A stretch of 64,000 nt of DNA, taken from the NCBI GenBank assembly GCA_045863235.1, contig BTUM01000019.1, positions 18,691 through 82,690 of the forward strand. Reading direction: 5' to 3'. Below are positions 42,097 through 57,752 of this stretch, one piece after another. The notes below the pieces were generated by a model. It did no database searches and was not told where the DNA came from. It was given only the letters and a program-made list of their open reading frames with translations. Numbering within the stretch: position 1 is the stretch's first letter; each line of letters starts with the position of its first letter. The position numbers and the translations under genes were made by a program. The stretch is from Candidatus Xenobia bacterium (GTDB lineage Bacteria; Vulcanimicrobiota; Xenobia; Xenobiales; QWHO01).

Positions 42097-43001
42097 CGCA
42101 AGCTATCCTTTCGGGTGAGTCGGGCGACTCCGGGAGCGGGCCGCTCGGTCAGCACTTCACGGCGGAACCGAAACAGCTCGGCCGGGCGACCGCGCGTTCG
42201 AGTGCTGGCACCGGTCCCCTCGACCAACCCGGCATTCTCCACCAGACGCCGAAAGTTCTGCTTGTGCAGCCGCACTCCCGCCAGAGCCTCCACGGCGCTC
42301 TGAAGCTGGAAGAGGGTGAAGACCTCCGGCAAGAGCTCGAAGATCACCGGACGATATTTGATCTTGCCCCGGATCCGCCCCAACGCGGTTGCCAGCATGC
42401 GGCGATGATCGACGGCCATAGCCTGACCAAGCCGCTGCATCGGCTCGGCTGCCTCGGCCACCAACCGGGCCTCGTACAGGAGCTCGTATCGCTCCAGGAC
42501 GCGCTCCTCGTCCCAGGCCGCCCCGCTCAAACCGAAAGCGATCAGGGCTCGCTCGCGACGAGCGGGCTGGCCATGCGACCACTCCCGCATCGAAAGCTCG
42601 ATCTCCTGGAGGATCTGCGGCCGACCCTGGCGCCAGTCTTCCCAGGGCAGGAAGCCGTAGACCGCGGCCCAGTGAGCCGAGAAGGCCGGGGCCACGGCCA
42701 TCTCTCGCACCAGCGCCAGATACGCTACCGCCAGCGAGCGCTCACCCGTTTCCCGCTCGCGCGGATCGCGAAAGCGGTCGGCGAAGGTATAAAGTTGCTC
42801 GACGTAGCCCACCTCTAAACCCGCCCGGGCAAGTACCCAGCGACGCAGAGCGCGTTCCAGGGTTGTGTCGCCGGTCGGGTCAAGAGAGCCGAAAGGAAGC
42901 GCTTCGACCGATTCCAGGTCGCGCACGGTCAGCACACGCGGCTGCTCGCCAGTCACCGCCAGGATCACGGCCGTCAGACCTACGTCGATACGATCGGTCA
43001 C
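42093..43001 (-). CDS. NrtR-like Nudix-related transcriptional regulator
   Basis: N-terminal Nudix fold and a C-terminal winged-helix region (KQNFRRLVENAGLVE..RGRPAELFRF) typical of NrtR. Confidence 0.65.
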   Translation of the reverse strand: MTDRIDVGLTAVILAVTGEQPRVLTVRDLESVEALPFGSLDPTGDTTLERALRRWVLARAGLEVGYVEQLYTFADRFRDPRERETGERSLAVAYLALVREMAVAPAFSAHWAAVYGFLPWEDWRQGRPQILQEIELSMREWSHGQPARRERALIAFGLSGAAWDEERVLERYELLYEARLVAEAAEPMQRLGQAMAVDHRRMLATALGRIRGKIKYRPVIFELLPEVFTLFQLQSAVEALAGVRLHKQNFRRLVENAGLVEGTGASTRTRGRPAELFRFRREVLTERPAPGVARLTRKDSLR

Positions 43002-45263: not shown

Positions 45264-45416
45264 ACCTTCCCCTCGGGAGAGCTTTCACGGGGCAGGTGGC
45301 CCTGACCCGCTCTCCATTATAGCACAGGTGTCATCCGGCAGGAGAAGCACCGGTTGAAAAGAACTCGTGGCAGATTTTTTCGCCCTTTTCGTGTATGCCT
45401 CAAGGAGAATGATACG

Positions 45417-46712
45417 TTGAAAACCTGGAATGTCCTCATCCAGCTGGCTTTGATCGCAGCCTTTTGCGCTCTCTGCTTCTGGTGGCTCTACGATGCACCC
45501 AACCACCGGCTGCGCCTGAAGCTCGGTCTGGACCTGCGCTCGGGCTCGCACATCGCCGTGCAGCTCATCCCCACGCCCGATGACCAGGGGAATATCATTC
45601 CCATCAACGAGCTGGTGCGCCAACAGACCATCCAGGTGTTCGAACGACGGCTCAATCCCGATGGCACGCTGGAGATCTTGATCACCCCCGAGGGCGTCGA
45701 CCGCCTGATCATCGAGATTCCCGAGATGACCGACAGCCAGAAGGCTGAGCAAATGGTCCAAAAGGTGGCCAAGCTCGAGTTCAGGCGCCGGGTGCCCAAC
45801 ATCGCCAAGGGCATCGTGGAGTGGAAAACCGTCATGGACGGCAAGTACATCAAGCGAGCCATGCCCGAGAGCAACATGGGCGGGGGCTGGGTGGTGGCCT
45901 TCGAGCTGACCGACAAGGGAGCCGACATCTTCGGCAACATCACCGCCGAGATGGTGGGCCAGCCGCTGGGCATCTTCTTCGACGGCCAACCGGTGGGCCC
46001 GGGGGCCACCGAGGCCGAGAAGCTCGAGCGCCAGCCCATCGTGCAGGAAGCCATCCGGGGGGGTCGCGGCCAGATCAGCGGCAGCTTCTCCGTGGAGCAG
46101 GCCCAGGAGCTGGCAACCTACCTCAACTCGGGCACGCTGCCTGTAAACGTCAAAGTACTCAGCTCCTTCACGGTCAGCCCTACCCTGGGCAAGGAATCGC
46201 TGGACTCGAGCGTCATGGCTTTCGGCGGCGGTCTGGGCATCATCGTGCTCTACATGATCTTGTATTATCGCTTGCCAGGCATCTGCGCCAGTATCGCGCT
46301 GGTGGCCTACGCGCTCATCGTGCTTGCCTCCATGAACATACCCGGCATGGAGTTCGTTCTCACGCTGCCCGGCATCGCAGGCTTCATCCTGTCCATCGGC
46401 ATCGCGGTGGATGCCAACGTGCTGCAGTTCGAGCGCCTCAAGGAGGAGCTGTGGCACGACAAGTCGGTGGGAACGGCCACCGACGTCGGCTTTGCCAGGG
46501 CCTGGTCGTCCATCCTGGACGGCCACGTCACCACCTTCATCGGCGCCTTCATCCTGTATGCCTTTGGTACCGCGACGGTCAAAGGCTTTGGAGCCACACT
46601 GATGATCGGAACGGTATGGAGCCTGATCACCGCCGTCTACATCACCCGCATGCTTCTCGAGTTCTTCATTTACGTCGCCAACGTCAAGAATCGCTGGCTT
46701 TACGGAGCCTAG
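45417..46712 (+). CDS. secD: Protein translocase subunit SecD
   Basis: N-terminal TM, periplasmic domain, and a C-terminal 5-TM SecD/SecF core (GLGIIVLYMILYYRLPG...). TTG start at 45417 preceded by AAGGAG. Confidence 0.85.
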   Translation: MKTWNVLIQLALIAAFCALCFWWLYDAPNHRLRLKLGLDLRSGSHIAVQLIPTPDDQGNIIPINELVRQQTIQVFERRLNPDGTLEILITPEGVDRLIIEIPEMTDSQKAEQMVQKVAKLEFRRRVPNIAKGIVEWKTVMDGKYIKRAMPESNMGGGWVVAFELTDKGADIFGNITAEMVGQPLGIFFDGQPVGPGATEAEKLERQPIVQEAIRGGRGQISGSFSVEQAQELATYLNSGTLPVNVKVLSSFTVSPTLGKESLDSSVMAFGGGLGIIVLYMILYYRLPGICASIALVAYALIVLASMNIPGMEFVLTLPGIAGFILSIGIAVDANVLQFERLKEELWHDKSVGTATDVGFARAWSSILDGHVTTFIGAFILYAFGTATVKGFGATLMIGTVWSLITAVYITRMLLEFFIYVANVKNRWLYGA

Positions 46713-46722
46713 GAGCTAAGTC

Positions 46723-47910
46723 ATGGATACCACCAAGATGATCGAAGTCGCCCTTTGGGCGATCATTCTGACGGCCATCGTCACCTGGGGCCAGTCGTTC
46801 CGCAAGAAGACGCGCGACCTGATGGGGAATCGACGCTACTTCTACTATGTCAGCGCCACTCTGGTAGTGGTCGGGCTGGGAGGAATCCTCATCCGGGGCG
46901 TGCAGCTCGGACTTGACTTCACCGGGGGCACGCTGGTCGAGCTCTCCTCGCCCCAGATGCTCACCGTCAACCAGGTGCGCGAAGCGATGGCTGACCCCCG
47001 GGTTGACGGCCAGAGCCCGGGCAGCGTGCCCATCGCCGACCTCCAGGTGCAGGTATCGGCCAGTCTCATCCCGGGCCTGGGCAAGGACGGCCAGCCAGCC
47101 CAGAAGATCATCTTGCGCATGAAGCGCCAGGGCAACGAAGAGCCAGCCCTGAGCGCAGATCAGACCCAGATGGTGGTCACCGTTCTGGGCGAGAAGCTCC
47201 AGACGACCTTGTTGCGCGAGGAGCGCATCGGGTCTACCATCACCGGCGAGCTGCAGATGAACGCCATCATGGCCCTCGTGATCACGCTCGGGCTCCAGCT
47301 CATCTACATTTATTTCCGGTTCGGGGGCCAGATGCGTTTCGGCCTGGCCGCCGACATCGCCCTGGTCCATGATGTGGTAATCATGCTGGGCATCTACGCC
47401 CTGGCCGGACGTCAGGTTGACTCGCCCTTCATCGCCGCTTTGCTGACCGTAACCGGCTATTCGGTGATGGATTCTGTGGTCATCTTCGACCGCATTCGCG
47501 AGAATCTCCGCATCACCAAGAACGCCACCTTTGACGAAGTGGTCAACCTTTCGGTGAACCAGACCATGACTCGCTCCATCAACACCACGCTGACGCCCAT
47601 CCTGACCCTGCTGGCCATCTACTTCTTCGGGGGCTCCACCCTGCAGAACTTCGCCTTCGCGCTGCTGGTGGGGATCTTCGCAGGCGCCTATTCGTCCATC
47701 TGCCTGGCCTCGCCCCTGCTGATCGAGATCGACCACTACGCCACCCGCAAGGAGAAGGAGCGGCTGGCGATGCGGCGCGAGCTGGCCGAGCAGAAGGCGG
47801 GCGAGCGCAAAAAGCGTGAGGTCACAGTGCGGCCCGAGGAGCTGGATCCCGTCGAGCAAGCCATGCAGGGTGCGGCCAGCGGCAAAAGACGGGGGCGACG
47901 TCGCCGCTGA
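46723..47910 (+). CDS. secF: Protein translocase subunit SecF
   Basis: GLDFTGGT motif and 6 TM helices. The C-terminal basic tail is unusual. Confidence 0.85.
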   Translation: MDTTKMIEVALWAIILTAIVTWGQSFRKKTRDLMGNRRYFYYVSATLVVVGLGGILIRGVQLGLDFTGGTLVELSSPQMLTVNQVREAMADPRVDGQSPGSVPIADLQVQVSASLIPGLGKDGQPAQKIILRMKRQGNEEPALSADQTQMVVTVLGEKLQTTLLREERIGSTITGELQMNAIMALVITLGLQLIYIYFRFGGQMRFGLAADIALVHDVVIMLGIYALAGRQVDSPFIAALLTVTGYSVMDSVVIFDRIRENLRITKNATFDEVVNLSVNQTMTRSINTTLTPILTLLAIYFFGGSTLQNFAFALLVGIFAGAYSSICLASPLLIEIDHYATRKEKERLAMRRELAEQKAGERKKREVTVRPEELDPVEQAMQGAASGKRRGRRRR

Positions 47911-47912
47911 GC

Positions 47913-49049
47913 TTGATCCCCGAGCGCGTCCCTCATCCGGTCGATCGAATGAAGATCCTGGCCAGGATGATCCACATCACCTCGCATCTGAGCGACCTGG
48001 AATCCCTGCAGGAAATCCTGATGGACCACTTGCTGGAGCTGGTGGGAGCAGAGCGGGGCTTCCTGATGCTGGTCGACCCCGAAAGCGGCGCGCTGGAATT
48101 CTGCACGGCTCGCAACTTCTCTAAGGAAAGCCTGTTCGAGTCTGAGTTTCAGGTAAGCCGTAGCATCATTTTCGAGACCTTCCGCAGCCGAGAGGCCGTG
48201 CTGACCTCCAATGCCCAGGATGATGAGCGTTTCCAGAGCGCGATCAGTGTCCAGGAGCTCGGCTTGCGGGCGGTCATGTGCGTACCGGTGGTCGTGCAAG
48301 ACGAGGCCATCGGAGTGCTCTACGTCGACAACCGCTTGCGGCTGGGAGCCTTCGAGACAGAGGACCTCGAATTCATGAAGACCTTTGCCGATCAAGCCGG
48401 GGCCAGCATCCACCGAACCCGCCTGACCCGGGAACGAAACCGACTGGCCCAGCTGTTCAGTCGCTATGTCAGCCCCGAGGTGGTTGGCGAGTTACTGGCC
48501 CGCCCGCACGACGCGCTCAGCGCCCAGCGGCGCCGGGTCACGGTGATGTTCGTGGATCTGCGCGGCTTCTCGGCCCTCTCCGAGCAGCTTCCCCCGGCCG
48601 AGCTCCTGGACATGCTCAATGAATACTACGAGGGCATGCTCGAGGTACTGTTCGCTCACCGGGGCACCATTCTGTCCTTCCTGGGCGACGGCTTGCTGGC
48701 CGTCTTCGGGGCTCCGTTGGCCATGGAGCAACAGGAGTTGAGGGCCATTCAGTGCGCCAGGAATCTGATTCAATGGGGAGAAACCAGACAGGGGCTGAAG
48801 TTTGGGGTGGGTATGGCCACCGGCGAGGCGGTCGTAGGGGATCTGGGGGGCTCTCAGAGAAGAGACTACACGGTCGTGGGCGACCCGGTGAACACCGCCG
48901 CCCGACTCGAAAAACTCACCAAGAGCAAGGGGGTTGCGGTGCTGGTGGATGAGGAGACCTACCGCTCCAGCGGCCTGACGGGAGGAACCAACCTGGGGGC
49001 AGAGCTTCTGGCTGGCAAGTCCAATCCGGTCTCCCTCTGGGCCGTGTGA
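47913..49049 (+). CDS. GAF domain-containing class III adenylate/guanylate cyclase
   Basis: N-terminal GAF domain. CHD domain with RRVTVMFVDLRGFSAL..GDGLLAVFGAP... Starts 3 nt after the secF stop. Confidence 0.8.
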   Translation: MIPERVPHPVDRMKILARMIHITSHLSDLESLQEILMDHLLELVGAERGFLMLVDPESGALEFCTARNFSKESLFESEFQVSRSIIFETFRSREAVLTSNAQDDERFQSAISVQELGLRAVMCVPVVVQDEAIGVLYVDNRLRLGAFETEDLEFMKTFADQAGASIHRTRLTRERNRLAQLFSRYVSPEVVGELLARPHDALSAQRRRVTVMFVDLRGFSALSEQLPPAELLDMLNEYYEGMLEVLFAHRGTILSFLGDGLLAVFGAPLAMEQQELRAIQCARNLIQWGETRQGLKFGVGMATGEAVVGDLGGSQRRDYTVVGDPVNTAARLEKLTKSKGVAVLVDEETYRSSGLTGGTNLGAELLAGKSNPVSLWAV

Positions 49050-50338
49050 AACGCGGCCTGGTCGTGCTGGCTTTGACCGCTCTGCAGGCCTGTGGCCCTC
49101 CTCCCCCGGACCCGGCCCTGCACATGGCTCCCGACACCCCTCTGAGCGAATCGGCCTACGTCGCCTCCGATCGGGGCGGCCAGCTCTGGTTCCGACTCTA
49201 CCGGCGAGGTGACCCCTCGGACGAGCCCTTTCGCCCCAGCGGCGTGAGCGCCCCTGGCCGCATCCGAATTCCAGAAGGACACCTGGTAGATCTGGAGGTG
49301 CGCGGTCGCATCGGTCCCTTCCAGCTGTTCCGCGCCACCCAGGGCCGCGTCCAACCAGAGTCACACGTTTCCCTGGTCAGTGTGGTGGAGCTCGATTGGA
49401 ATCGCATCCTGGCCCTGGGACTGGTCAGCCTGGCCGGCCTCTCGGGAGCGCTCTGGCTGATCCTCGCCAGCCGCCTGCGCCACCGGGAGAATCAGGCACT
49501 GGAGCTCGAGGTCGAGCGCAACCAGGCTGAAGAACGGGCTCGGCGGGCCGAGTCGCGCACCGGTGGTGATCCCATTCGGCTGGGGCCGTACCGCATCCTG
49601 GAACGGCTCGGCCAGGGCGGGCACGCGGTGGTCTACCTGGTCGAAGACGAGTATGGCGACCGCTTCGCACTGAAAATTCCCAGCCAGCCCTCCCAGCGCT
49701 TCCAGCGAGAATGCGAAATCTTGCGGGAGCTGCGCCACCCGGGCATTGTGCGCTTGCACAGCTTCTCGGTCGCAAGCCAGGACGAACCGGCCTACATGGT
49801 GCTCGAACCGGTCGAAGGGGAGAGCCTGCTCGAGCGACTCGAGCGGCCCATGGCCCCTGAGGAAGCGGTGCGCATCGCGCGCGAGCTGCTGCAGGCGCTC
49901 GAATATGCTCATCAGGCCGGGGTCGTTCATCGCGACGTCTCGGCCGGCAACGTGCTCTTGACCGCTCAGGGAGTGCGCCTGCTCGACTTCGGGCTGGCCC
50001 GCCAGGATCTGCAGGTCACCCTGACGGCCCCCGACCAGACCCTGGGAACCCCTGCCTACGCCGCCCCGGAGCAGATCGACAGCCACACCGTCGACGCCCG
50101 GGCCGACCTTTTTGCGGTGGGCGTGTTGCTCTATCAGATGCTGACCGGGCGGCTACCCTGGCAAGAGCGCGACGCCGTCAAGCTGTTCCTGGCCAAGAGC
50201 AGCACGCCGCCGCCTCCTCCCAACCAGCTCAACCCGATGATTTCACGGTCGTTGAGCGAGCTCGTCATGGACCTGTTGCGGGCTGACCCCGCGGATCGAC
50301 CCGAATCGGCCGGGGCCGTGCTGAGGCGGCTGAGCTGA
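49046..50338 (+). CDS. Membrane Ser/Thr protein kinase with N-terminal extracytoplasmic domain
   Basis: Signal-like N-terminus, an extracytoplasmic region of about 100 aa, and a TM helix. Cytoplasmic Hanks kinase with FALKIP, HRDVSAGN, DFGLAR and APE motifs. 4-nt overlap with the cyclase gene. Confidence 0.8.
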   Translation: MKRGLVVLALTALQACGPPPPDPALHMAPDTPLSESAYVASDRGGQLWFRLYRRGDPSDEPFRPSGVSAPGRIRIPEGHLVDLEVRGRIGPFQLFRATQGRVQPESHVSLVSVVELDWNRILALGLVSLAGLSGALWLILASRLRHRENQALELEVERNQAEERARRAESRTGGDPIRLGPYRILERLGQGGHAVVYLVEDEYGDRFALKIPSQPSQRFQRECEILRELRHPGIVRLHSFSVASQDEPAYMVLEPVEGESLLERLERPMAPEEAVRIARELLQALEYAHQAGVVHRDVSAGNVLLTAQGVRLLDFGLARQDLQVTLTAPDQTLGTPAYAAPEQIDSHTVDARADLFAVGVLLYQMLTGRLPWQERDAVKLFLAKSSTPPPPPNQLNPMISRSLSELVMDLLRADPADRPESAGAVLRRLS

Positions 50339-51555
50339 TGGCAACTTTCCGCTACCGGGCTTCGGGCGCAGGGGGAGCGTTGAAGGAGGGGGTGCTGGAG
50401 GCAACCAGCAAACAGGATGCTTCCCGCTCCCTGCTGCAACGGGGCCTGATGGTCCTCGAGCTGAAAGAGGAGCGTGCTGCCGCTCCTCGCCAGCTGGTGG
50501 CCCCACCGGTCCCCCGGGCGATCGTCGCCCCGCCCCCTCGACTGACCCGGCTCTCGGCCATGGAAGCCGCGGTGCTGTTTCGCCAGCTGGCGGTCATGTT
50601 CCAGGCCGGCCTCTCGCTCTTTCGGGCAGTCACCTGCCTGGCCCAGCAGGCTGAGCGGCCCCGCCGGCGCCAGGCACTGGAGCTGCTGGCCGCCCGCCTG
50701 GCCGAGGGCTCCTCGCTGAGCCAGGCCATGGAGCTCTCCGGGCTCTTTTCGCAACTTGAGATCGGGGTGATGAAGGCGGGGGAGGAGTCGGGTATGCTCA
50801 GCGTCCTGCTCGAGCGACTGGCCCGGCTTCAAGAGCTGGAGTTGGCCTTTCAGCAACAGGTGAAGGCCCGCCTCAGCTACCCGGTTGGCGTGGCCGCAGC
50901 CATGGTGGTGGCCGCCTCGCTACTGACCATCTTGATGGGCCGAGTCGTCGCCTCCATGGGGAGCCTGGCCGAGGCCAGCCCCTTTCTGAGGTTGATCCAA
51001 CAACCCTGGCTGCCGGCCCTCATGCTGCTCGTCCCGCTAGCTCTGGGCTGGTTGGCCTGGTGGGGTTGGAGGGGCTCCTCCACCCGGGCCAGCATGGAGC
51101 GCGTCTTGCTGAGGTTTGCCGTGGTCGGGCCCCTGCTGCGCCGGGCCGAGTCAGCCCGCATCTGCCGTATTCTGGCCGTGCTGGCTTCCAGCGGACTGCG
51201 GGTGGATCGCAGTCTGAGCCTGGCCGCCGGCACGACCGGGAGCCCCCTGGCACGCGAGGCCCTCGAGGTCGCTCGCCGCCATCTGGTGGCGGGTGAAGGG
51301 CTGGCCGCCGCTCTGGCGGCAAGCGGCTATTTTCCGCGCGAGGTGATCCAGATGACCGCGGCCGGCGAGAGTTCCGGGCGGCTGGGGCCGATGCTCTCCA
51401 AAGTGGCCGAATATGCCGACCTTCAGGTTACCCAGTTCCTGGAGGCTGCGGTTACGGCCCTGGAGCCGCTGCTACTGAGCGTGCTCGGCTTTCTGGTCGG
51501 ACTTACCATGCTGGCCATCTTCGGGCCCCTTTACGGAGCTCTGGGCAGACTTTGA
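50338..51555 (+). CDS. Type II secretion system F (GspF/PilC/TadB-like) platform family membrane protein
   Basis: Two T2SS-F repeats (..AVLFRQLAVMFQAGLSL.. and ..CRILAVLASSGLRV..) with flanking TM helices. TGATG stop/start overlap with the kinase gene. Confidence 0.75.
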   Translation: MATFRYRASGAGGALKEGVLEATSKQDASRSLLQRGLMVLELKEERAAAPRQLVAPPVPRAIVAPPPRLTRLSAMEAAVLFRQLAVMFQAGLSLFRAVTCLAQQAERPRRRQALELLAARLAEGSSLSQAMELSGLFSQLEIGVMKAGEESGMLSVLLERLARLQELELAFQQQVKARLSYPVGVAAAMVVAASLLTILMGRVVASMGSLAEASPFLRLIQQPWLPALMLLVPLALGWLAWWGWRGSSTRASMERVLLRFAVVGPLLRRAESARICRILAVLASSGLRVDRSLSLAAGTTGSPLAREALEVARRHLVAGEGLAAALAASGYFPREVIQMTAAGESSGRLGPMLSKVAEYADLQVTQFLEAAVTALEPLLLSVLGFLVGLTMLAIFGPLYGALGRL

Positions 51556-52089
51556 CAGGCTCTGCTTGAGGCGAGCCGGCATGGGGTCGATGGGGTCGAG
51601 CTTCATCGCCGCATCGAACTGCTCGATCGCCTTCTCAGGCTGCTCCAGACGCACGTACACCAACCCCAGCGTGGTCCGAAACTGACTGATTCCAGGGTGG
51701 ACCCGACAGGCTTCCTGGAGCACCTCGATCGCCCTGTCGGGCTGCTTGCTCAGAAGGTAGCAGTGGGCCAGCAGGTCCCAGGCGGCCAGATAGTCGGGGC
51801 ACAGGTGGATGACCTGCTCCAGATGCTCGATCGCTTCCGGGAGGTGCCGATGATGCACCTCGTCCTCGGCCTGGGCATACAGGCTACGCGCCCGGTCAAA
51901 ATCGCGCCACTGGGCCTGCGCCCGGAGACTCATCGCCAGCGCGATCGGCAGGAGAAGGCAAAAGATCCCGATACTCAGGGCGCGTCGCCGCGACCCGGCT
52001 GGTGCTACTCGCATTCTGACAAGATTCGCCGCACCCGAGCCCCGGCCTCTCATGGAATGAGCCTTCCGTGCTGAAGCCTTCCGGGACAA
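51472..52089 (-). CDS. TPR repeat protein (membrane-anchored)
   Basis: TM helix followed by TPR-like repeats. Its 5' end overlaps the 3' end of the convergent GspF-like gene, so the true start is probably internal. Confidence 0.5.
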   Translation of the reverse strand: MSRKASARKAHSMRGRGSGAANLVRMRVAPAGSRRRALSIGIFCLLLPIALAMSLRAQAQWRDFDRARSLYAQAEDEVHHRHLPEAIEHLEQVIHLCPDYLAAWDLLAHCYLLSKQPDRAIEVLQEACRVHPGISQFRTTLGLVYVRLEQPEKAIEQFDAAMKLDPIDPMPARLKQSLSKSAQSSVKGPEDGQHGKSDQKAEHAQ

Positions 52090-52105
52090 CCCTCAGCACT
52101 TCACT

Positions 52106-52867
52106 TCAACGGCCGGCCCTGGCGCGCAGATCGACTCGCACCATGGGGACTTCGATCTCGCCCTCGTGGTCGCCCAGGAGCTGGTCGGTGAAGCTTTCCA
52201 GCTCGAGCTCGGTGAGCCGCTCCACATAGGGGCGCCAGCCCGCCTCAAACCAGCTTTTGAAGGCCTGGCGCGAGGCCAGGCGCCCGGTCCGAGAGATCAG
52301 CTCCAGCCGCTCCACTTTCAGATCGGTCAGAGCCCGCTGGAAGGGTTCGAGCCCCAGAAAGGTCCAGGGCATCTCGAAACCGGCGAACGCCTCGCGCCAG
52401 GCCGGCGAGCTTCGCAAAGTCTCCACCCGGTCCAGCCAGAAAGCCATGTTCCCCTGGCCGCCCAGTTGGACCCGGAGCAGTCCGCCCGGATTGAGCAGGC
52501 GACCCATGCGGGCCACGGCCGCGGGAGGATCGCTCAGCCAGTGCAGGCAAGCAAACGAGCAGACCAGATCGAAGCCCGGTGTGAACTCGAGCGAAGCCGC
52601 GTCGGCCACTTCAAAGCTCAAACCAGGTCGAGCGTAATTGCGAGTGGCAAAGTCCACCATTTCGGGGGCCAGATCCACACCCACCACCCGGGCGCCAGGA
52701 CAGCGTGCGGCGAGTTCCGCGGTCACCCGTCCACTTCCACAGCCAACATCCAGAATCGAGCCCACGGCCGTCAGGTCGAGTTGCTCGAGCACCTCCTGCG
52801 CAAGACCGAACTGGACCTGGCTGTGCTGGTCATAACTGGCCGGATTCCACACTGTGGGCCTCATCAC
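52106..52867 (-). CDS. Class I SAM-dependent methyltransferase (trans-aconitate methyltransferase-like)
   Basis: NPASYDQHSQVQ and the ILDVGCGSG motif I. Confidence 0.8.
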   Translation of the reverse strand: MMRPTVWNPASYDQHSQVQFGLAQEVLEQLDLTAVGSILDVGCGSGRVTAELAARCPGARVVGVDLAPEMVDFATRNYARPGLSFEVADAASLEFTPGFDLVCSFACLHWLSDPPAAVARMGRLLNPGGLLRVQLGGQGNMAFWLDRVETLRSSPAWREAFAGFEMPWTFLGLEPFQRALTDLKVERLELISRTGRLASRQAFKSWFEAGWRPYVERLTELELESFTDQLLGDHEGEIEVPMVRVDLRARAGR

Positions 52868-52886
52868 CGAGGTCCCCGAGAAGGGG

Positions 52887-53945
52887 TCACGGAGTCCAGT
52901 CGTCTTGCTTCTTCACCGACTGGCAGAAGGCTGCCAGCAAACGCACGCAATTGTCGAGGTCGTCAAGCTCGAGCATCTCGCAAGGATTGTGCATGTAGCG
53001 CAAGGGGATAGAGAGCAGTCCGGCTGCGACTCCTGCCCTGGAAAGCTGAATGACGTTGGCGTCGGTTCCGGTACCCCGAGGATTGGCCTCGACCTGATAG
53101 GGAATCTTGCCCGCCTCGGCCACCTCGACCAGACGCTGGAAAACGTGAGGATTGACGTTGGGGCCCCGAGCGATGACCGGGCCCTTTCCCATCTGGATGT
53201 CTCCGTGGCGCTTCTTGTCCGAGTCAGGCAGGTCGGTGGCATGGCAGACATCAATGGCGATTCCGATGGTGGGATTGATCCCGTAGGCGGCCGTCTGGGC
53301 CCCGCGTAACCCGATTTCTTCCTGCACCGCCGAGACTCCGTGCACCGATGCCGCCAGCTTCTTGCCCTTGAGCGAGCGCAAAGTCTCGGCCACGACATAG
53401 AGACCGCAGCGGTTGTCGAAGGCTTTGGAAGCAGCTCGACCATTGCGCAACAAGGTGAGACTGGCATCCATCGTAACCGGGTCGCCCAACTTGACCAGCT
53501 CGCGTGCCTCGTCACCGGAAGTGGCCCCGATGTCCACCCACATCTTGTGCAACTCGGACTTCTTCTTGCGCTCTTCCTCGTCCATGAGGTGGATGGCGCG
53601 CTTACCGAAAACGCCGGGTATGGAGCCCGAGGCGGTGTGCACCAGCGCCCGCTGAGCCACGATCACCTCGGCGTCCCAGCCCCCCGAGGCCACCACGAAG
53701 AGGTAGCCCTTGTCGTCGATGTACTTGACCAGAAAGCCGATCTCATCGGAGTGACCGTCGAGCATGATGCGGGGATTGCCCTTGGGGTTGGCGACAGCGA
53801 TCACCGAGCCCATCAGGTCGGTGCGCATCTCCCCCACCTGGCCCTCCAGGCGAGCACGAAAAACTTTCTGAACAGCCTGCTCATAGCCGGGCGTGCCGTG
53901 CGACTCAACGAGCTGTTGAAGGAACTCCAGGGCGCCCTTCTTCAT
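52887..53945 (-). CDS. M42 family metallopeptidase (FrvX/glutamyl aminopeptidase-like)
   Basis: GTPGYE ... MLDGHSDEIGF ... motifs. 352 aa. Confidence 0.85.
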   Translation of the reverse strand: MKKGALEFLQQLVESHGTPGYEQAVQKVFRARLEGQVGEMRTDLMGSVIAVANPKGNPRIMLDGHSDEIGFLVKYIDDKGYLFVVASGGWDAEVIVAQRALVHTASGSIPGVFGKRAIHLMDEEERKKKSELHKMWVDIGATSGDEARELVKLGDPVTMDASLTLLRNGRAASKAFDNRCGLYVVAETLRSLKGKKLAASVHGVSAVQEEIGLRGAQTAAYGINPTIGIAIDVCHATDLPDSDKKRHGDIQMGKGPVIARGPNVNPHVFQRLVEVAEAGKIPYQVEANPRGTGTDANVIQLSRAGVAAGLLSIPLRYMHNPCEMLELDDLDNCVRLLAAFCQSVKKQDDWTP

Positions 53946-56407
53946 CGCTGGATGGTCAAGAACAGCTCGCTCATCTCAGCCGAGGGCGAGATGTTCAACT
54001 CGTTCTTCATGATCTGGGCGCAGCTTTGATACTGGCGGGCGGCCTGCTCGGGCTTGCCCTGCTCCACGAAAGCCCGCATCAGGCAAAGGTGCGCTTCCTG
54101 GTGACAGTTGTCGATCTTGAGCAGGCGCTGGGCGTAATCGTTGCTGACCTCGTAGCGCTCTTTCTCGAAGAAGTAGGTCATCAGGCTCTCGAGCACCTCG
54201 GTATACTTCATCTCCAGCTCTTCGCGGAGCAAGATGGACCAATCAGCGTAGTAGCCTTCCATGAACTCACCCTGATAGAGGCCTTCAGCCTTCTGGAAGG
54301 CGATGATGGACTCGTCATCGCGCCCCTCGCGCTCGCGGGCCTGACCAAGCTCGTACTGTCGCTCGAACTCGGCCACGTCGAAGAACCAGGAACGGTCCAC
54401 ATTGAATCGATAGAAGCCTTTGCGGGCAAGCACCACGCGGTCGGACTCCCCGGTGAAGACTGCTTCCAACGCCTTGCGCATGTGCGAAAGAGCGGCGTAA
54501 AGAGATTGGCGGGCCTTCTCGGGCGGGTGATCGGGCCAGAACAGGTCCATGATCTTCTCGTCTGGGATGTCTCGGCCCGAATGCACCGCCAAATAAGCGA
54601 ACAGGTACTTCGACTTGCGGGTCTTCCAGAGCTTGTCGCCCACCTCCTGGCCGCCCGCGAAGACGCGGAACTTGCCAAAACCATACAGCGAAAGGGGCGG
54701 AGCCTGCACCGCACCGGCCACACCTTCCTTGGGGGACAAAAGCTCCATCACCCGCTCGCGAGTGTTCGCCTGGACGTCGGCCAGGAATGGCTGGACAGCA
54801 TCAAAGCCCAGTGATTGCAGCATGCGGTCGACCGCTGGCGACTCCTGGGCGGCAAATTCGAGCAGCAGCGGAATGGCCAGGTGACGCTGCTGACGCAGCG
54901 ACTGCTGGAGCCCGTACTTCTCGACGGTCTCGGCAGCCAGGTCGACCTGCGCCCTGGCCTCAGCGGCCTGATTGTTCTTGTGCAGCACCTTGCCACGATA
55001 AAGAGCGGTGGAGGCCAGCTCAGGCTGGTGCTCCCACACGGTGAAGATCTCGCGAGCCCTGTCGAGGTCTTCCAGAGCCGGCGCAACTTCTCCCTGTACG
55101 CCCCGGACCAGGCCTCGGACAGCCTGGGCCTTGCCGGTGCGCAGCTGGCTCTGACCGATGGCGGCCTCCACGGCCTGATCGGCGTAGCCGCGCGCGTCGT
55201 CCACGCGACCGCGGTGCAGGTGAGAAAGCGCCAGGCCGACCAGCGCCTCGGAGCGCAAACCGCCCGCCGCCTCCGGCAGCAGCTCCAAAGCGCCCGAATA
55301 GGCTTTCCCCGATATTTCAAGGTCGCCAGCCGACAGGTAGGTGCCTGCCAGGCCCAGCATCAGCTCCACCTGCCGCTCCTTGGAGAGGGCCTCCTCGCGA
55401 ACTTCCTCGTCGTCCTCGGCCGTTTCGTCGGTGGCCTCTTCGTCGGCAGCCAGCATCTTGAGGAACTGATTGACCAGGTCCGGGTCGAAGTGGGTGCCAG
55501 CCTCCTTCTCCAGGATCTGGCGAGCGTCGTGGTGGCTCAAAGGCTCGCGGTGAGGGCGCGCGCTGATCATGGCATCGTAAGCCTCAGCCACGCAAAGAAT
55601 GCGCGATTCCAGAGGAATTTGGGTACCCTTCAGGCCCTGCGGGTGTCCCGAGCCATCGAACCATTCATGGTGGTGCAGCACGATCCGGAACACTTCTCGC
55701 AGACTCCCCAGACTGCTGAACAAAGTCTGGGATTGCTGGCTGGAGGCCTCCTGCAGTTGCTGCTTTTCGCCCTCGTCGAGCATCTCTTCGGTCTTGTCCA
55801 GGAAGGCTTTTTTCTGGCCGATGGTGCCCACGTCATGCAAGAAGGCAGCCAACTCGAGCACCTCGAGCCGGTTGCGGGAAAGCCCGGCCGCCTTGCCGAT
55901 CTTCAGAGAGCTCTCGGCCACGCGGCGCGAGTGACCGCTGAAGTGCTCGTCGCGCTCCTCCACGCCCTCGGCCAGCAGTTTGACGATGGCCGCAAAATCG
56001 CGCCACTGCTGCTCGAGACCCTGAGAGAAACTCTTCTGCAGCCGATAGGACTCCAGGCTGCGCTTGACGCTCTGCACGAACTGCTTGTCGTCAAAGGGCT
56101 TCATCAAATAGTCGTCCACGCCCATCTTGATGGCGCGAATGGGCACGTCGGGACTGGCGTAGCCGGTGATCACGATGGAGCGGGTATCGGGCTGGTCGCG
56201 TTTGAGGTTGGAGATCGTCTCCAGACCGTCCATTTCGGCCATGCGGACGTCACACACCACCAGGTCGAAGGATGTCTCCTTCGCCTTCTGAATGGCGTCC
56301 AGCCCCGAAGACGCGGTGGTTACATCGTAACCCTCGTCCGTAAGCAGAATCTCCAAGGCTGCAAGCATCAAGGGGTCGTCTTCGACCACCAGGATCTTCT
56401 CCGGCAC
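53942..56407 (-). CDS. Multidomain response regulator: REC + HD-GYP + TPR + C-terminal SARP (OmpR-type wHTH + BTAD)
   Basis: REC domain with phospho-acceptor (VCDVRMAEMDG). HD-GYP domain (HHHEWFDGSGHPQGL). TPR region. C-terminal FGKFRVFAGGQEV...KSKYLFAYLAVH...RVVLARKGFYRFN winged helix, then a BTAD helical domain. Confidence 0.75.
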   Translation of the reverse strand: MPEKILVVEDDPLMLAALEILLTDEGYDVTTASSGLDAIQKAKETSFDLVVCDVRMAEMDGLETISNLKRDQPDTRSIVITGYASPDVPIRAIKMGVDDYLMKPFDDKQFVQSVKRSLESYRLQKSFSQGLEQQWRDFAAIVKLLAEGVEERDEHFSGHSRRVAESSLKIGKAAGLSRNRLEVLELAAFLHDVGTIGQKKAFLDKTEEMLDEGEKQQLQEASSQQSQTLFSSLGSLREVFRIVLHHHEWFDGSGHPQGLKGTQIPLESRILCVAEAYDAMISARPHREPLSHHDARQILEKEAGTHFDPDLVNQFLKMLAADEEATDETAEDDEEVREEALSKERQVELMLGLAGTYLSAGDLEISGKAYSGALELLPEAAGGLRSEALVGLALSHLHRGRVDDARGYADQAVEAAIGQSQLRTGKAQAVRGLVRGVQGEVAPALEDLDRAREIFTVWEHQPELASTALYRGKVLHKNNQAAEARAQVDLAAETVEKYGLQQSLRQQRHLAIPLLLEFAAQESPAVDRMLQSLGFDAVQPFLADVQANTRERVMELLSPKEGVAGAVQAPPLSLYGFGKFRVFAGGQEVGDKLWKTRKSKYLFAYLAVHSGRDIPDEKIMDLFWPDHPPEKARQSLYAALSHMRKALEAVFTGESDRVVLARKGFYRFNVDRSWFFDVAEFERQYELGQAREREGRDDESIIAFQKAEGLYQGEFMEGYYADWSILLREELEMKYTEVLESLMTYFFEKERYEVSNDYAQRLLKIDNCHQEAHLCLMRAFVEQGKPEQAARQYQSCAQIMKNELNISPSAEMSELFLTIQR

Positions 56408-56564
56408 GGTGCCTCCCCAGTCACTGGTAAGTCGGTCCGACCGGCGACCGGACCGAGCATCCTACTGATCCCGAGTTGAAATTCTTTGGCAATTCCCCTT
56501 CTCAAGGCGAAGTCCTCCCTGCCCGGCGGGCTCCCGACAGGGGGCCCAGGGGAGGGAAGGATAT

Positions 56565-57752
56565 TCAACCAACCTGAGCGGGCTCGCGTCGAACCTCATC
56601 CTCATAAGCTTGAATCCCGGTGAGATGGCGCCCCAGAATCAACTGCTGAATCTGGCTGGTTCCCTCGTAGAGGCTGGCCACCCGGGCGTCGCGCCAGAGC
56701 CGCTCCGGGGCAAACTCGTTGGAATAGCCGTAGCCACCGTGGATCTGGATGGCTTTGTCGGCGGCCCGCTTGGCCACTTCGCTGGCATAGTACTTGCACA
56801 CCGAGACCTCGATGGTGCTCTTGCGGCCCTCGTTCTTGGCCATTCCGGCCTGGTAGACCAGCAACCGGGCGGCTTGCGTCTCGACATAGAGGTCGGCCAG
56901 CATCTCCTGCACCAATTGGAAGCCCGCGATCGGTTTGCCGAAGGCTTCCCGCTCCTTGGAGTATGCGACGCTGCAATCCAGGGCGTGCTGAGCGATGCCG
57001 ACGCAGCCGCTGGCTACGCCGTAGCGCCCATTATCCAGAGCGCTCATGGCGATCTTGAAGCCCTGCCCCACCTCGCCCAGTCGGGCTGAATCAGGCACCC
57101 GCACGTTCTCGAGGAACAGCTCGCCCGTGTCGGAGGCCTTCAAACCCAGTTTCCCTTTCATCTTCTGAGTCTGGAAGCCGGGCGACTTCGTCTCCACCAG
57201 GAAAGCCACCATCCCGCGATGCTTGGAGCCCGGCTCGGTCTGGGCGAAGATCAGGGCCAGATCAGCCCAGGTACCGTTGGAGATCCAGACCTTCTGGCCG
57301 TTCAAGATCCAGTCCGATCCCTGGCGCACGGCCCGGGTGGCCAGGTTGCCCGCATCCGAGCCCGCTCCAGGCTCGGTCAGGCCAAAGCAGCCGATCCACT
57401 CGGCCGAGCACAGGCGGGGCAGGTAGGTTTTCTTCTGCTCCTCGGTGCCCCAGGCCAGAATCGTCAGCTCCACCAGCGACATCTGCACCGACAGCGTGGT
57501 GCGCACCGAGGAGTCGGCGTAGCCGATCTCTTCGAAGACCATTGCCTCGCTGATATAGTCCAGGCCGGCCCCGCCGTACTGCTCGGGCACCGGAACACCC
57601 AGAAAGCCGAGCTTGCCCATCTCGTTGAGCAGCTCCCGGGGATAGGCCTCCTCGATGTCCCAGCGGCGGGCGTGAGGCAAGATCTTATCCCGCGCGAAGC
57701 TACGCGCGGCATCGCGGATCATTTTTTGTTCGGAAGTCGGGTTGAAGTCCAT
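56565..57752 (-). CDS. Acyl-CoA dehydrogenase (glutaryl-CoA dehydrogenase-like)
   Basis: ACAD N/M/C domains, GLTEPGAGSD, the catalytic Glu region and YEGT. Confidence 0.85.
   Translation of the reverse strand: MDFNPTSEQKMIRDAARSFARDKILPHARRWDIEEAYPRELLNEMGKLGFLGVPVPEQYGGAGLDYISEAMVFEEIGYADSSVRTTLSVQMSLVELTILAWGTEEQKKTYLPRLCSAEWIGCFGLTEPGAGSDAGNLATRAVRQGSDWILNGQKVWISNGTWADLALIFAQTEPGSKHRGMVAFLVETKSPGFQTQKMKGKLGLKASDTGELFLENVRVPDSARLGEVGQGFKIAMSALDNGRYGVASGCVGIAQHALDCSVAYSKEREAFGKPIAGFQLVQEMLADLYVETQAARLLVYQAGMAKNEGRKSTIEVSVCKYYASEVAKRAADKAIQIHGGYGYSNEFAPERLWRDARVASLYEGTSQIQQLILGRHLTGIQAYEDEVRREPAQVG

Follow-up and report, generated by a model that had tools for sequence, protein, structure and literature searches.

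The gene at positions 53942 to 56407 of a 64,000-nucleotide window from a Candidatus Xenobia bacterium (the window being the whole stretch of DNA analysed here) raises the question of whether one protein joins a phospho-receiver and an HD-GYP domain to a SARP-type DNA-binding module and whether, in that case, c-di-GMP turnover as well as phosphorylation would be coupled to transcription. The 821-codon open reading frame given in a preliminary description of the sequence is confirmed on the minus strand, where it starts with GTG, carries the Shine-Dalgarno sequence GGAGG 5 nt upstream and encodes a product that is identical over all 821 aa to a protein in the public collection (P0001). The domain order proposed at the same time (REC, HD-GYP fold, TPR, winged helix (wHTH), BTAD) also holds, based on Pfam, a confident AlphaFold model (AF2) and matches in fold with the SARP domains of AfsR and EmbR. 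The features of the gene and its product are:

53942..56407, minus strand: whole regulator gene, 821 aa, stop codon included (ORF list and translation)
56066..56395, minus strand: REC domain, residues 5-114 (Pfam Response_reg, 106 bits)
55955..56089, minus strand: long stalk helix, residues 107-151, leading from REC alpha5 to HD-GYP (AF2 secondary structure)
55475..55978, minus strand: HD-GYP-fold domain, residues 144-311 (Pfam HD_5, 115 bits; alignments with 4mcw, 5z7c and 4r8z)
55631..55675, minus strand: motif HHHEWFDGSGHPQGL, residues 245-259, in which GHP replaces GYP (translation)
55403..55432, minus strand: linker of acidic character, probably disordered, residues 326-335, within ADEEATDETAEDDEEVREE (pLDDT below 50 in AF2; sequence)
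54737..55417, minus strand: TPR-like helical repeats, residues ~331-557 (Pfam TPR_16 and TPR_12; helix pairs in the model)
54404..54700, minus strand: OmpR-type wHTH, residues 570-668 (Trans_reg_C, E 6e-4; EmbR alignment; AF2; Foldseek)
53951..54382, minus strand: BTAD, residues 676-819 (Pfam BTAD, 69 bits; Foldseek match to the AfsR SARP domain)

The AF2 model has a mean pLDDT of 86.5 and is confident throughout with the exception of two short linkers, which argues against a chimeric reading frame created by a misassembly or frameshift that fused two genes. Moreover, about 100 independent clusters (90% identity) from many assemblies share the same REC/HD-GYP/TPR/SARP architecture at a length of 810-860 aa and down to 31% identity. 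As nothing was found in its favour, this explanation is effectively ruled out. The same clusters show that the architecture is not unique to the window, and some members already bear the composite JGI name [quoted passage not shown] The family is uncharacterised, and all members seen so far come from one uncultured phylum, Eremiobacterota (Vulcanimicrobiota).

With its receiver fold and full set of phospho-site residues, the regulator belongs to the response regulator superfamily. Its model matches REC structures in Foldseek with target TM values of 0.87-0.95, and the acceptor D53 is accompanied by D10, D11, T81, Y100 and K103. Among 97 homologues, D53, T81, Y100 and K103 are invariant; the columns of D10 and D11, covered by 83 of the homologues, contain Asp without exception. 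The receiver is followed by the long stalk helix; in DvhD, dimerisation is mediated by stalk helices (PMC13090378). Beyond the HD-GYP domain and the acidic linker, uninterrupted helix pairs run through the TPR-like region of the AF2 model, where TPR_16 is matched at residues 356-418 above the Pfam cut-off (34.4 bits) and where TPR_MalT is matched by 28 of 47 relatives.

The C-terminal module was expected to show Trans_reg_C and BTAD matches at residues of about 580-821. BTAD is clearly detected and is present in all 47 relatives, while Trans_reg_C (residues 593-663) reaches 20.3 bits and stays under the Pfam cut-off of 26.2. Despite this sub-threshold score, the OmpR-type winged helix is supported by the model, Foldseek and the relatives. 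In the AF2 model, the characteristic elements follow each other as strands (572-584), three helices (597-608, 616-623 and 629-650) and a wing (659-668), and Trans_reg_C is matched at E<=0.01 by 34 of 47 family members, with a best value of 2.9e-8. Searches with phmmer match EmbR and AfsR at E 2e-4 to 1e-3 (sequence identity ~18%), with EmbR aligning across the wHTH (E 6e-4). BTAD is placed directly C-terminal to the winged helix and packed against it, and the whole 250-residue unit can be superposed on the SARP domain of AfsR, which Foldseek matches over ~253 columns (target TM 0.78-0.79, rmsd 3.3-3.4 A; the matched structures include transcription initiation complexes), and EmbR is matched over 259 columns. 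In addition, W624, P629, R644 and K645 are found at the offsets of the AfsR DNA contacts W74, P79, R94 and K95 (contacts taken from PMC10936776), W624 and R644 being invariant in the alignment of 47 sequences.

These observations make it very improbable that the module is only an additional TPR-like surface which does not bind DNA and signals by protein contacts alone. Such a reading could draw on the sub-threshold Trans_reg_C score, on the TPR-like nature of BTAD itself (designed TPR proteins score above AfsR in phmmer) and on the 260 nt upstream of the gene and of five related loci, in which no 11- or 22-bp SARP-type direct repeats, i.e., target repeats, were found. However, it would account neither for the OmpR-type topology, complete with its sheet, its three helices and the wing, and the superposition on complete AfsR and EmbR SARP domains, nor for the Trans_reg_C matches among the relatives and the retained W, P, R and K residues. 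DNA binding by the regulator is expected, and the suggested coupling of phosphorylation to transcription via the SARP module is well supported.

Actinobacterial SARPs have been described with the SARP domain at the N-terminus (PMC10936776), and the C-terminal placement in the regulator (residues 570-821 of 821), which does not fit this description, had been considered unusual. This is not borne out when the 252-aa SARP module is used as query in an exhaustive phmmer search, which yielded 43,294 representatives at E<=1e-3: in all of the best 150 of these 43,294, the module ends no more than 18 residues from the C-terminus, and in 139 of the best 150 it is preceded by at least 100 residues. Partner domains ahead of the module in this branch comprise REC, HD-GYP, AAA_16, TPR and HEAT. 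The N-terminal position is consequently treated as descriptive of actinobacterial SARPs and not as defining. In common with AfsR, EmbR and SARPs of the DnrI/ActII-ORF4 type, the regulator exhibits an OmpR-type winged helix directly followed by BTAD as well as the W, P, R and K residues. It differs from them in that its module lies behind sensory domains and under the control of a receiver instead of NOD-TPR, FHA or Ser/Thr phosphorylation, in its occurrence in Eremiobacterota without a biosynthetic gene cluster, and in its low sequence similarity to AfsR and EmbR.

The HD-GYP fold is present in the regulator, as seen from the HD_5 profile, whose match spans positions 2-170 of 170, and from Foldseek matches of the domain to PA4781 and DvhD (target TM 0.74-0.79) and also to PmGH. 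The best NCBIfam match of the protein is the model for NosR-family response regulator c-di-GMP phosphodiesterases (246 bits). The HD-GYP residues H159, H191, D192, H246, H247, R284 and R287 are retained, and E248, D251 and D278 are present as well. Of the seven core metal ligands of PmGH (H189, H221, D222, H250, H276, H277 and D305), five recur unchanged in the regulator, and the retained and conserved pair formed by R284 and R287 (R284-P-H-R287; contact motif RxY[K/R] in Galperin & Chou) is equivalent to the PmGH c-di-GMP contacts R314 and K317; the RxxR pair is considered a determinant of c-di-GMP specificity (Galperin & Chou).

Contrary to what had been assumed, the domain is not complete. 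PmGH H250, a metal ligand, corresponds to Ala221, and no His occurs in residues 193-244, i.e., between the HD at 191-192 and H245. Furthermore, K225 of PmGH, the conserved Lys of HDxGK, is represented by Thr195, D305 by Glu275 and Y285 by H255 (GYP to GHP), and the KPG loop reads KTE, beginning at K205. At the four positions occupied by T, A, E and H in the regulator, K, H, D and Y are kept in PmGH, V-cGAP3 and all of the 17 REC-HD-GYP relatives that have no SARP module, and the KPG loop starts with K-P in 14 of these 17. The pLDDT falls to 53-70 over residues 191-240, which correspond to the segment of the canonical KPG loop and the H250 helix. The preliminary description had named missing metal ligands as the finding that would speak against it, and this applies in part, with one core His replaced by Ala and a ligand Asp by Glu.

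In PmGH, activity is essentially abolished by H250A, K225A and D183A and lowered by D305A, and alanine mutants of the GYP motif keep most of it (PMC4159591). An RpfG without one ligand His is reportedly active (Galperin & Chou), but the residue concerned is H189 and not H250. Because a core His ligand, the K225-type lysine and the KPG loop are lost, the HD-GYP domain, in the regulator as in its clade, probably does not function as a c-di-GMP phosphodiesterase, and the postulated turnover of c-di-GMP becomes doubtful, given that both the ligand His and the lysine required for activity are canonical in all ordinary relatives. This presumably non-catalytic domain still has its HD and HH ligands as well as the nucleotide-contacting Arg...Arg pair.

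The bifunctional reading of the preliminary description, in which the regulator is an active, phosphorylation-controlled c-di-GMP phosphodiesterase and a transcription activator at the same time, appears unlikely, though a fair number of residues would agree with it. The HD and HH ligands, H159, E248, D251, D278 and the R284/R287 pair are in place, the HD_5 and NosR-family models score high, GYP alanine mutants of PmGH are largely active (PMC4159591), and near-canonical family members such as P0084 exist. With five of seven PmGH ligands identical and D305 conservatively replaced by Glu, the metal site might still be binuclear, and hydrolysis might persist in residual or altered form. Fusions of phosphodiesterase and DNA-binding domains are also known to work. 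VieA of Vibrio cholerae (REC-EAL-HTH; PMC4352251) similarly combines a receiver, a central c-di-GMP phosphodiesterase-type domain and a C-terminal DNA-binding domain, and PdeL (YahA) of E. coli (PMC5052742) fuses a domain that binds or breaks down c-di-GMP to a DNA-binding domain, thereby passing c-di-GMP status on to transcription. The known trigger phosphodiesterases are all of the EAL type, and an HD-GYP trigger phosphodiesterase was only suggested as a possibility by Hengge (PMC5052742); if the bifunctional reading were true, the regulator would be the HD-GYP counterpart of VieA or of the trigger phosphodiesterase PdeL. However, the regulator is by nature H250A-like and K225T-like, alanine changes at precisely these sites essentially abolish PmGH activity, and the low pLDDT affects the same part of the domain. 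The middle and output domains of VieA are of unrelated folds (EAL vs. HD-GYP and a simple HTH vs. wHTH-BTAD), VieA lacks the TPR spacer and is an active phosphodiesterase, whereas catalysis by the regulator is doubtful judging from its residues. PdeL, a LuxR-HTH and EAL protein without a receiver, is likewise enzymatically active. Functionally, the regulator may be likened to the trigger phosphodiesterases PdeR and PdeL by analogy only, its own phosphodiesterase activity being doubtful.

The SARP-fused family as a whole points in the same direction. Both residues that are invariant in the 17 ordinary relatives are variable or almost always replaced in its 97 members: Lys at the K225 position is absent from the six commonest residue classes and found only in P0084 in the family site table, and the mid-domain His at the H250 position is retained in only 21 of 97. 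The latter position varies between S, A, H, R, T and K, which suggests relaxed selection on catalysis. The D305 position is Glu in 93 of 97 members. The family forms a graded series that extends from the near-canonical P0084 to P0095-P0100, which are devoid of the HH pair; across it, catalytic residues are progressively lost, but the phospho-site of the receiver is kept, as is the RxxR pair. In 68 of 97 members, the residue corresponding to PmGH E185 is a His (His155), and one might speculate that it serves as a compensating metal ligand.

Progressive degeneration might also mean that the domain is a pure scaffold, which neither binds nor hydrolyses a nucleotide and passes the REC signal on to TPR-SARP as a dimerisation or spacer element. 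In agreement with this, sister proteins of the type REC-X-TPR-SARP contain only a weak, collinear HD-GYP vestige with no HD dyad, and some clades of the family itself lack the HH pair. Two elements that contact c-di-GMP, the tyrosine of GYP and the KPG loop (Galperin & Chou), are altered in the regulator, so that the reading as a cyclic-dinucleotide sensor is weakened, too. Conservation of H159, H191 and D192 without exception and of H246, H247, E248, R284 and R287 in at least 90% of family members, however, exceeds the needs of a spacer, and the RxxR pair that determines c-di-GMP specificity is among the retained residues. We regard a mere scaffold as improbable.

On balance, the regulator is probably a phosphorylation-controlled activator of the SARP type, in which the HD-GYP domain would gate the SARP output as a non-catalytic sensor or relay. 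In this model, a histidine kinase would phosphorylate Asp53. A 453-aa HisKA-HATPase kinase is encoded divergently upstream at the related loci L002, L004 and L006, where it is orthologous across three lineages; the window gave no tblastn match to it and contains no kinase, GGDEF, EAL or PilZ gene. Phosphorylation would alter how the dimer or the stalk is arranged in the unit formed by REC, long helix and HD-GYP, and two SARP modules would thereby be released or positioned. Once bound to tandem repeats in the promoters of target genes, these might touch RNA polymerase in an AfsR-like manner and so activate transcription.

For the HD-GYP domain, a role as cyclic-dinucleotide sensor or dimerising relay would be comparable to that of the non-catalytic receptor DvhD from Desulfovibrio vulgaris (dCache-PAS-HD-GYP), which binds c-di-GMP without hydrolysis and whose dimerisation is altered by the binding (PMC13090378). 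Both proteins display an HD-GYP fold with lost catalytic residues (target TM 0.77-0.79), and a switch that acts via stalk helix and dimer, as in DvhD (PMC13090378), is proposed for the regulator. DvhD lacks HD (SQ) and HH (MN), both of which the regulator retains, and is no transcription factor but a membrane protein whose signal goes to the periplasm. With the REC-HD-GYP proteins of the RpfG family (Thermotoga TM0186, Vibrio and Desulfovibrio RpfG-type phosphodiesterases), the regulator shares the succession of receiver, long helix and HD-GYP fold, the HD and HH ligands, the RxxR pair and the response regulator phosphodiesterase match in NCBIfam. It departs from this family by the replaced equivalents of K225, H250 and D305, by the changes in the KPG loop and at the tyrosine of GYP, and by an HD-GYP domain that is not the terminal output but is followed by the TPR region and SARP module. 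In the text of their survey of HD-GYP domains, Galperin & Chou do not mention DNA-binding, HTH, SARP, BTAD or TPR fusions.

The genomic surroundings of the gene are formed by the following elements:

56408..56564, minus strand: upstream intergenic region of 157 bp between an acyl-CoA dehydrogenase gene and the regulator gene (sequence)
52887..53945, minus strand: downstream M42 aminopeptidase gene (Pfam Peptidase_M42, 301 bits)
52106..52867, minus strand: downstream class I SAM-dependent methyltransferase gene, 19-nt gap (Pfam Methyltransf_11 and Methyltransf_25)
51472..52089, minus strand: downstream gene for a small TPR protein, 16-nt gap (Pfam TPR_2 and TPR_14)

No match to the sigma-70 consensus was found in the 157-bp intergenic region. 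The operon described for the regulator, M42 peptidase, methyltransferase and TPR genes is real in the window, where the ATG of the M42 gene overlaps the TGA of the regulator gene (ATGA), but the linkage is not conserved across the family. A small TPR gene beside the regulator was found in none of the related loci compared, and a methyltransferase gene after the M42 gene in only one of them (L005). Overall, the M42/methyltransferase/TPR operon is common only to a relative with 84% identity, and more distant members either lack it or have it in broken form.

The gene for the regulator is an open reading frame identified from the ORF list and translation of the window, with a GTG start codon and GGAGG 5 bases upstream, and a public protein collection holds an identical entry (P0001). 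Homology places the 821-residue product in the receiver superfamily, with an HD-GYP-fold domain and a wHTH-BTAD module of SARP type. The order proposed in the preliminary description, a receiver (REC) followed by HD-GYP, TPR and a C-terminal SARP module, was recovered by Pfam, structure modelling and Foldseek with each domain in its place:

53942-56407, minus strand: regulator gene, 821 residues
residues 5-114: Response_reg (Pfam, 106 bits)
residues 144-311: HD_5 (Pfam, 115 bits, entire profile covered)
residues 356-418: TPR_16 (Pfam, slightly over the cut-off)
residues 593-663: Trans_reg_C (Pfam, E 6e-4, 20.3 bits, under the 26.2-bit cut-off)
residues 676-819: BTAD (Pfam, 69 bits)

The AlphaFold2 model, computed from a 47-sequence alignment (mean pLDDT 86.5), agrees with the domain scan in showing an intact receiver and a long helix (residues 107-151) that enters the HD-GYP fold. 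After an acidic, low-confidence linker (326-335) come approximately six helical repeats; another short linker (561-569) separates them from the complete SARP unit at the end. Of the expected C-terminal pair, BTAD is clearly matched by Pfam, whereas Trans_reg_C falls under its cut-off and the winged helix is therefore not established from Pfam alone. Evidence independent of this match supports a predicted OmpR-type winged helix. Trans_reg_C is detected at E<=0.01 in 34 of 47 sampled homologues (best E 2.9e-8), and both EmbR (E about 6e-4) and the SARP domain of AfsR align with the region in phmmer. In the model, strands at 572-584 precede helices at 597-608, 616-623 and 629-650 and a beta-hairpin wing at 659-668, and an all-helical domain extends from there to residue 820. 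Foldseek superimposes the wHTH-BTAD unit on EmbR over 259 columns and on the AfsR SARP domain, solved within transcription-initiation complexes (8k60, 8hvr), over about 253 columns with a target TM of 0.78-0.79 and an rmsd of 3.3-3.4 A. Among the SARP-conserved DNA contacts of AfsR (Q48, W74, P79, T88, R94 and K95; PMC10936776), four of six are matched by W624, P629, R644 and K645 when positions are counted from the invariant Trp of the alignment with EmbR, and K598 and A638 occupy the positions of Q48 and T88. Neither W624 nor R644 varies across the 47 aligned sequences.

The C-terminal position of the module had been regarded as unusual, a view that holds for the actinobacterial proteins for which N-terminal placement was described (PMC10936776). 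With residues 570-821 as the query, phmmer was run exhaustively over 1.84 billion representative proteins and returned 43,294 matches at E<=1e-3 and 582 at E<=1e-30; a word-indexed search with the C-terminal module alone returned three proteins. In all of the best 150 of the 43,294 matches, the module ends no more than 18 residues from the C-terminus, and in 139 of these 150 at least 100 residues lie ahead of it. Pfam scans and local profile searches of the same 150 identified an HD-GYP domain in 19 (14 of them REC-HD-GYP-TPR-SARP), a REC domain with or without TPR and no detectable HD-GYP in 17 and a TPR region alone in nine, while 105 had no match to the family's own REC, HD-GYP or TPR profiles. 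In a sample of representatives, Pfam found AAA_16, HEAT or TPR domains, or no recognisable N-terminal domain. Judged from these sequences, the "N-terminal SARP" rule is not applicable to the regulator's branch, which corrects a common assumption: outside Actinobacteria, SARP-like wHTH-BTAD modules are commonly C-terminal in multidomain sensors.

The HD-GYP domain, initially described as complete, departs from the canonical site at several positions. Its signature motif at residues 245-259 (HHHEWFDGSGHPQGL) reads GHP instead of GYP. Alignment to PmGH (4mcw), V-cGAP3 (5z7c) and PA4781 (4r8z), repeated as a profile alignment with controls, gave the following correspondence.

Active-site positions of PmGH and their counterparts in the regulator
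D183, putative catalytic residue: D153, retained
H189, metal ligand: H159, retained
H221/D222, HD metal ligands: H191/D192, retained
H276/H277, HH metal ligands: H246/H247, retained
D308, structural: D278, retained
R314/K317, c-di-GMP contacts: R284/R287, retained
K225, Lys of HDxGK: Thr195
KPG loop, c-di-GMP contact: K-T-E
H250, metal ligand: Ala221
Y285, Tyr of GYP: His255
D305, metal ligand: Glu275

Key metal ligands are thus missing in part: H250 is lost and D305 is replaced by Glu, while H159, H191/D192 and H246/H247 are present. The loss of H250 is independent of the alignment because the translated sequence contains no histidine between residues 193 and 244. The expected K, H, D and Y were found at the K225, H250, D305 and Y285 positions in PmGH, in V-cGAP3 and in 17 of 17 ordinary REC-HD-GYP controls, taken from the more distant matches of the homologue search. 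In PmGH, H250A, K225A or D183A essentially abolished activity, D305A and E185A reduced it and mutants of the GYP motif had little effect (Bellini et al., PMC4159591). We do not count the regulator among the bona fide phosphodiesterases of the RpfG family, since two catalytic features that define them were looked for and not found, and catalysis by its HD-GYP domain appears doubtful. An active phosphodiesterase that also serves as an activator, comparable to VieA or PdeL, would still have the retained HD and HH ligands at its disposal but would have to work with Ala and Thr at the H250 and K225 positions; we consider it unlikely. RpfG, which according to the text of the Galperin and Chou survey is reportedly active without "a key His", was rejected as a precedent for harmless loss of a ligand histidine, since the residue missing there is H189 (Bellini et al., PMC4159591) and the position affected here is H250.

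Residue 155 (codon 55943-55945, minus strand) occupies the position of PmGH E185 and is His in 68 of 97 family members, Tyr in 21 and Phe in eight. E185 is a third-metal ligand in PmGH, and the position is usually Y/F or E/D in HD-GYP domains. His155 could be a compensating metal ligand.

The architecture, presented as novel in the preliminary description, is not unique to the regulator. It is common to about 100 clusters (90% identity) of 810-860 aa that are 31-84% identical to the regulator and named Candidatus Eremiobacterota, Candidatus Xenobiia or Xenobium, with some older "Armatimonadetes" labels. Several members bear a COG-derived composite JGI name joining "RpfG family c-di-GMP phosphodiesterase" and "DNA-binding SARP family transcriptional activator", so that the architecture was already visible in databases. 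NCBI taxonomy places the class Candidatus Xenobia within the phylum Vulcanimicrobiota; of ten representatives, three carry source names, two Armatimonadota and one Eremiobacterota MAG. A scan of GTDB genomes with patterns from the back-translated family alignment, which came from the generic REC domain, yielded at least one full-length relative among the matches listed (L006, a Vulcanimicrobiota MAG). An assembly artefact as the source of the ORF is ruled out by the homologous clusters of the same architecture, and little weight is left for this and any alternatives beyond those discussed here. A 63%-identical full-length homologue (P0021), an NCBI "unnamed protein product" of the alga Phaeothamnion confervicola on a 3.2-kb contig, is probably bacterial contamination of a eukaryotic assembly.

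Across 97 full-length members, D53, T81, Y100 and K103 of the receiver are invariant, and every one of the 83 sequences covering the D10 and D11 columns has Asp at both. The catalytic positions of the HD-GYP domain vary: the ligand Asp (D305) is replaced by Glu in 93 of 97 members, and the mid-domain His (H250) and the GYP tyrosine are retained in only 21 and 55, respectively. At the HDxGK lysine the six commonest classes are S, T, N, Q, Y and L, and in the subclade site table Lys occurs only in P0084, a nearly canonical member with K, KPG, H, HH, GYP and D. Most clades at 31-40% identity lack the Lys while retaining H, HH and GYP. In the clade of the regulator, Lys, KPG loop and mid-domain His are all gone and the Tyr is frequently missing too; in P0095-P0100 the HH pair is absent as well. 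The RxxR pair, a c-di-GMP specificity determinant according to the survey text of Galperin and Chou, is retained in nearly all members of the same table. Variable Lys, His and Tyr alongside a retained RxxR is the pattern expected if selection has ceased to act on catalysis while it continues to act on the fold and perhaps on ligand binding.

Among the nearest relatives of the SARP module are Eremiobacterota proteins of similar length (720-810 aa; P0134, P0147, P0160, P0169 and others) with the arrangement REC-X-TPR-SARP. Region X gives a weak, collinear HD-GYP profile match (E 0.002-0.05) without the HD dyad; one example reads "AAVLLAGIEQAG" in place of the regulator's "LAAFLHDVGTIG". This is suggestive, not conclusive, of a vestigial HD-GYP domain. 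In the regulator itself, with its retained RxxR pair, an HD-GYP domain reduced to a ligand-free scaffold seems quite improbable.

The proposed mechanism starts from phosphorylation of D53, which would reorganise the REC-stalk-HD-GYP dimer and bring two SARP units side by side onto tandem repeats, where they would recruit RNA polymerase, as for AfsR. The HD-GYP domain would modulate this output in one of two ways: it could bind a cyclic dinucleotide that is not turned over efficiently, or it could act as a dimerising relay alone. The first has a precedent in DvhD, a non-catalytic receptor whose HD-GYP domain binds c-di-GMP without hydrolysing it and changes stalk and dimer geometry (PMC13090378). 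Taking sequence, model and analogy together, we hold with moderate confidence that the regulator is a phosphorylated SARP-type activator with such a modulator or relay. The narrower version, in which a cyclic dinucleotide bound at a remodelled HD-GYP site, and perhaps slowly turned over there, sets a phosphorylation-gated activator allosterically, is put forward tentatively.

The known roles of HD-GYP domains are those of a terminal enzymatic output or a protein-interaction module, and we know of no example of an HD-GYP trigger phosphodiesterase. By function, the nearest analogues are the EAL-based VieA (REC-EAL-HTH) and PdeL (HTH-EAL), and an HD-GYP counterpart of EAL-based trigger phosphodiesterases was suggested as possible (Hengge, 2016; PMC5052742). 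The literature searched yielded no paper describing a REC-HD-GYP-SARP architecture or an HD-GYP domain fused to a transcription-factor module, and the running text of the Galperin and Chou survey mentions no DNA-binding, HTH, SARP, BTAD or TPR partners. Neither the pairing of HD-GYP with an output that binds DNA nor the degeneration series is described in that literature; the components and their logic are familiar. The architecture exists and is conserved; its function is what we infer. If the allosteric version is true, the family would be the first example of an HD-GYP-fold domain wired straight to a DNA-binding output and the HD-GYP counterpart of the EAL-based trigger phosphodiesterases, and a single protein lineage would preserve the evolutionary steps by which an enzyme became a receptor and then a vestigial scaffold. 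If c-di-GMP is sensed by the central domain, the family would offer a compact model in which two-component phosphorylation and second-messenger status are joined on one activator, and would extend the trigger-phosphodiesterase and degenerate-receptor concepts from EAL/GGDEF to HD-GYP. The graded loss of catalytic residues over about 100 clusters provides a natural series from enzyme domain to regulatory domain. For specialists in c-di-GMP and two-component signalling the regulator is worth testing, and it is useful because the Eremiobacterota (Vulcanimicrobiota) have reportedly gained a cultured representative only lately (PMC9758169).

The genomic context of the regulator is variable. As initially described, genes for an M42 peptidase, a class I methyltransferase and a small TPR protein lie on its strand; the ATG of the peptidase gene overlaps the regulator's TGA, and the next two gaps measure 19 nt and 16 nt. 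Of the loci compared, only the window and L005 (an 84%-identical relative) have the peptidase and methyltransferase genes behind the regulator. In L004 (70%) the M42 gene lies 2.7 kb off, beyond three other genes, and it is absent from L001, L002 and L006. Since the linkage is confined to the closest relatives, the operon is a local arrangement and a functional link to these three genes was rejected. A more recurrent neighbour is a divergent 453-aa HisKA-HATPase kinase beside the regulator in L002, L004 and L006 (50-71% mutual identity); its gene lies at 6536-7897 in L002 and 6410-7771 in L004. These kinases have no match across the 64-kb window, where an acyl-CoA dehydrogenase gene takes their position. 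The window likewise holds no paralogue of any of the regulator's four domains and, in ORFs of at least 150 aa, no GGDEF or EAL motif. Two genes for PilZ domains, a c-di-GMP receptor family, adjoin the divergent kinase/regulator pair of L004 (4746-6458), a hint of c-di-GMP signalling nearby.

A tightly packed run of genes occupies 45354-51555 on the plus strand:

45354-46712, plus strand: SecD
46723-47910, plus strand: SecF
47913-49049, plus strand: GAF-adenylate/guanylate cyclase
49046-50338, plus strand: Ser/Thr protein kinase (4-nt overlap)
50338-51555, plus strand: T2SS protein-F homologue (1-nt overlap)

In L001 the regulator's 39% homologue has a T2SS-F gene immediately upstream, and in L002 the 62% homologue has a Ser/Thr kinase-WD40 gene immediately downstream, which may reflect a loose recurrent association. 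At 51472-51555, the convergent T2SS-F gene (stop 51555, plus strand) and small TPR ORF (stop 51472, minus strand) overlap by 84 nt at their 3' ends, mostly outside the stretches of the two proteins that match Pfam. Unrelated to the regulator are two minus-strand genes at 40030-43001, the first for a 688-aa dipeptidyl-peptidase of the S46 family (634 bits) and the one after it for a protein with an NrtR-type winged-helix domain.

SARP-type direct repeats were sought as exact 7-mers at 10-12 or 21-23 bp in the 260 nt upstream of the regulator and of its relatives at five loci. None was common between loci, the sole match being one GC-rich 7-mer pair in L005. Within 51300-56700 a sigma-70 promoter scan gave zero matches, and terminator-like sites occurred at chance level. 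In the probable 5' leader (minus strand), CGGTCCG...CGGACCG forms a perfect inverted repeat of 7 bp around a 9-nt spacer at 56433-56455, approximately 26-48 nt upstream of the GTG. After the stop codon of the acyl-CoA dehydrogenase gene comes a second palindromic stretch rich in GC, CCTTCCCTCCCC...GGGCAGGGAGG.
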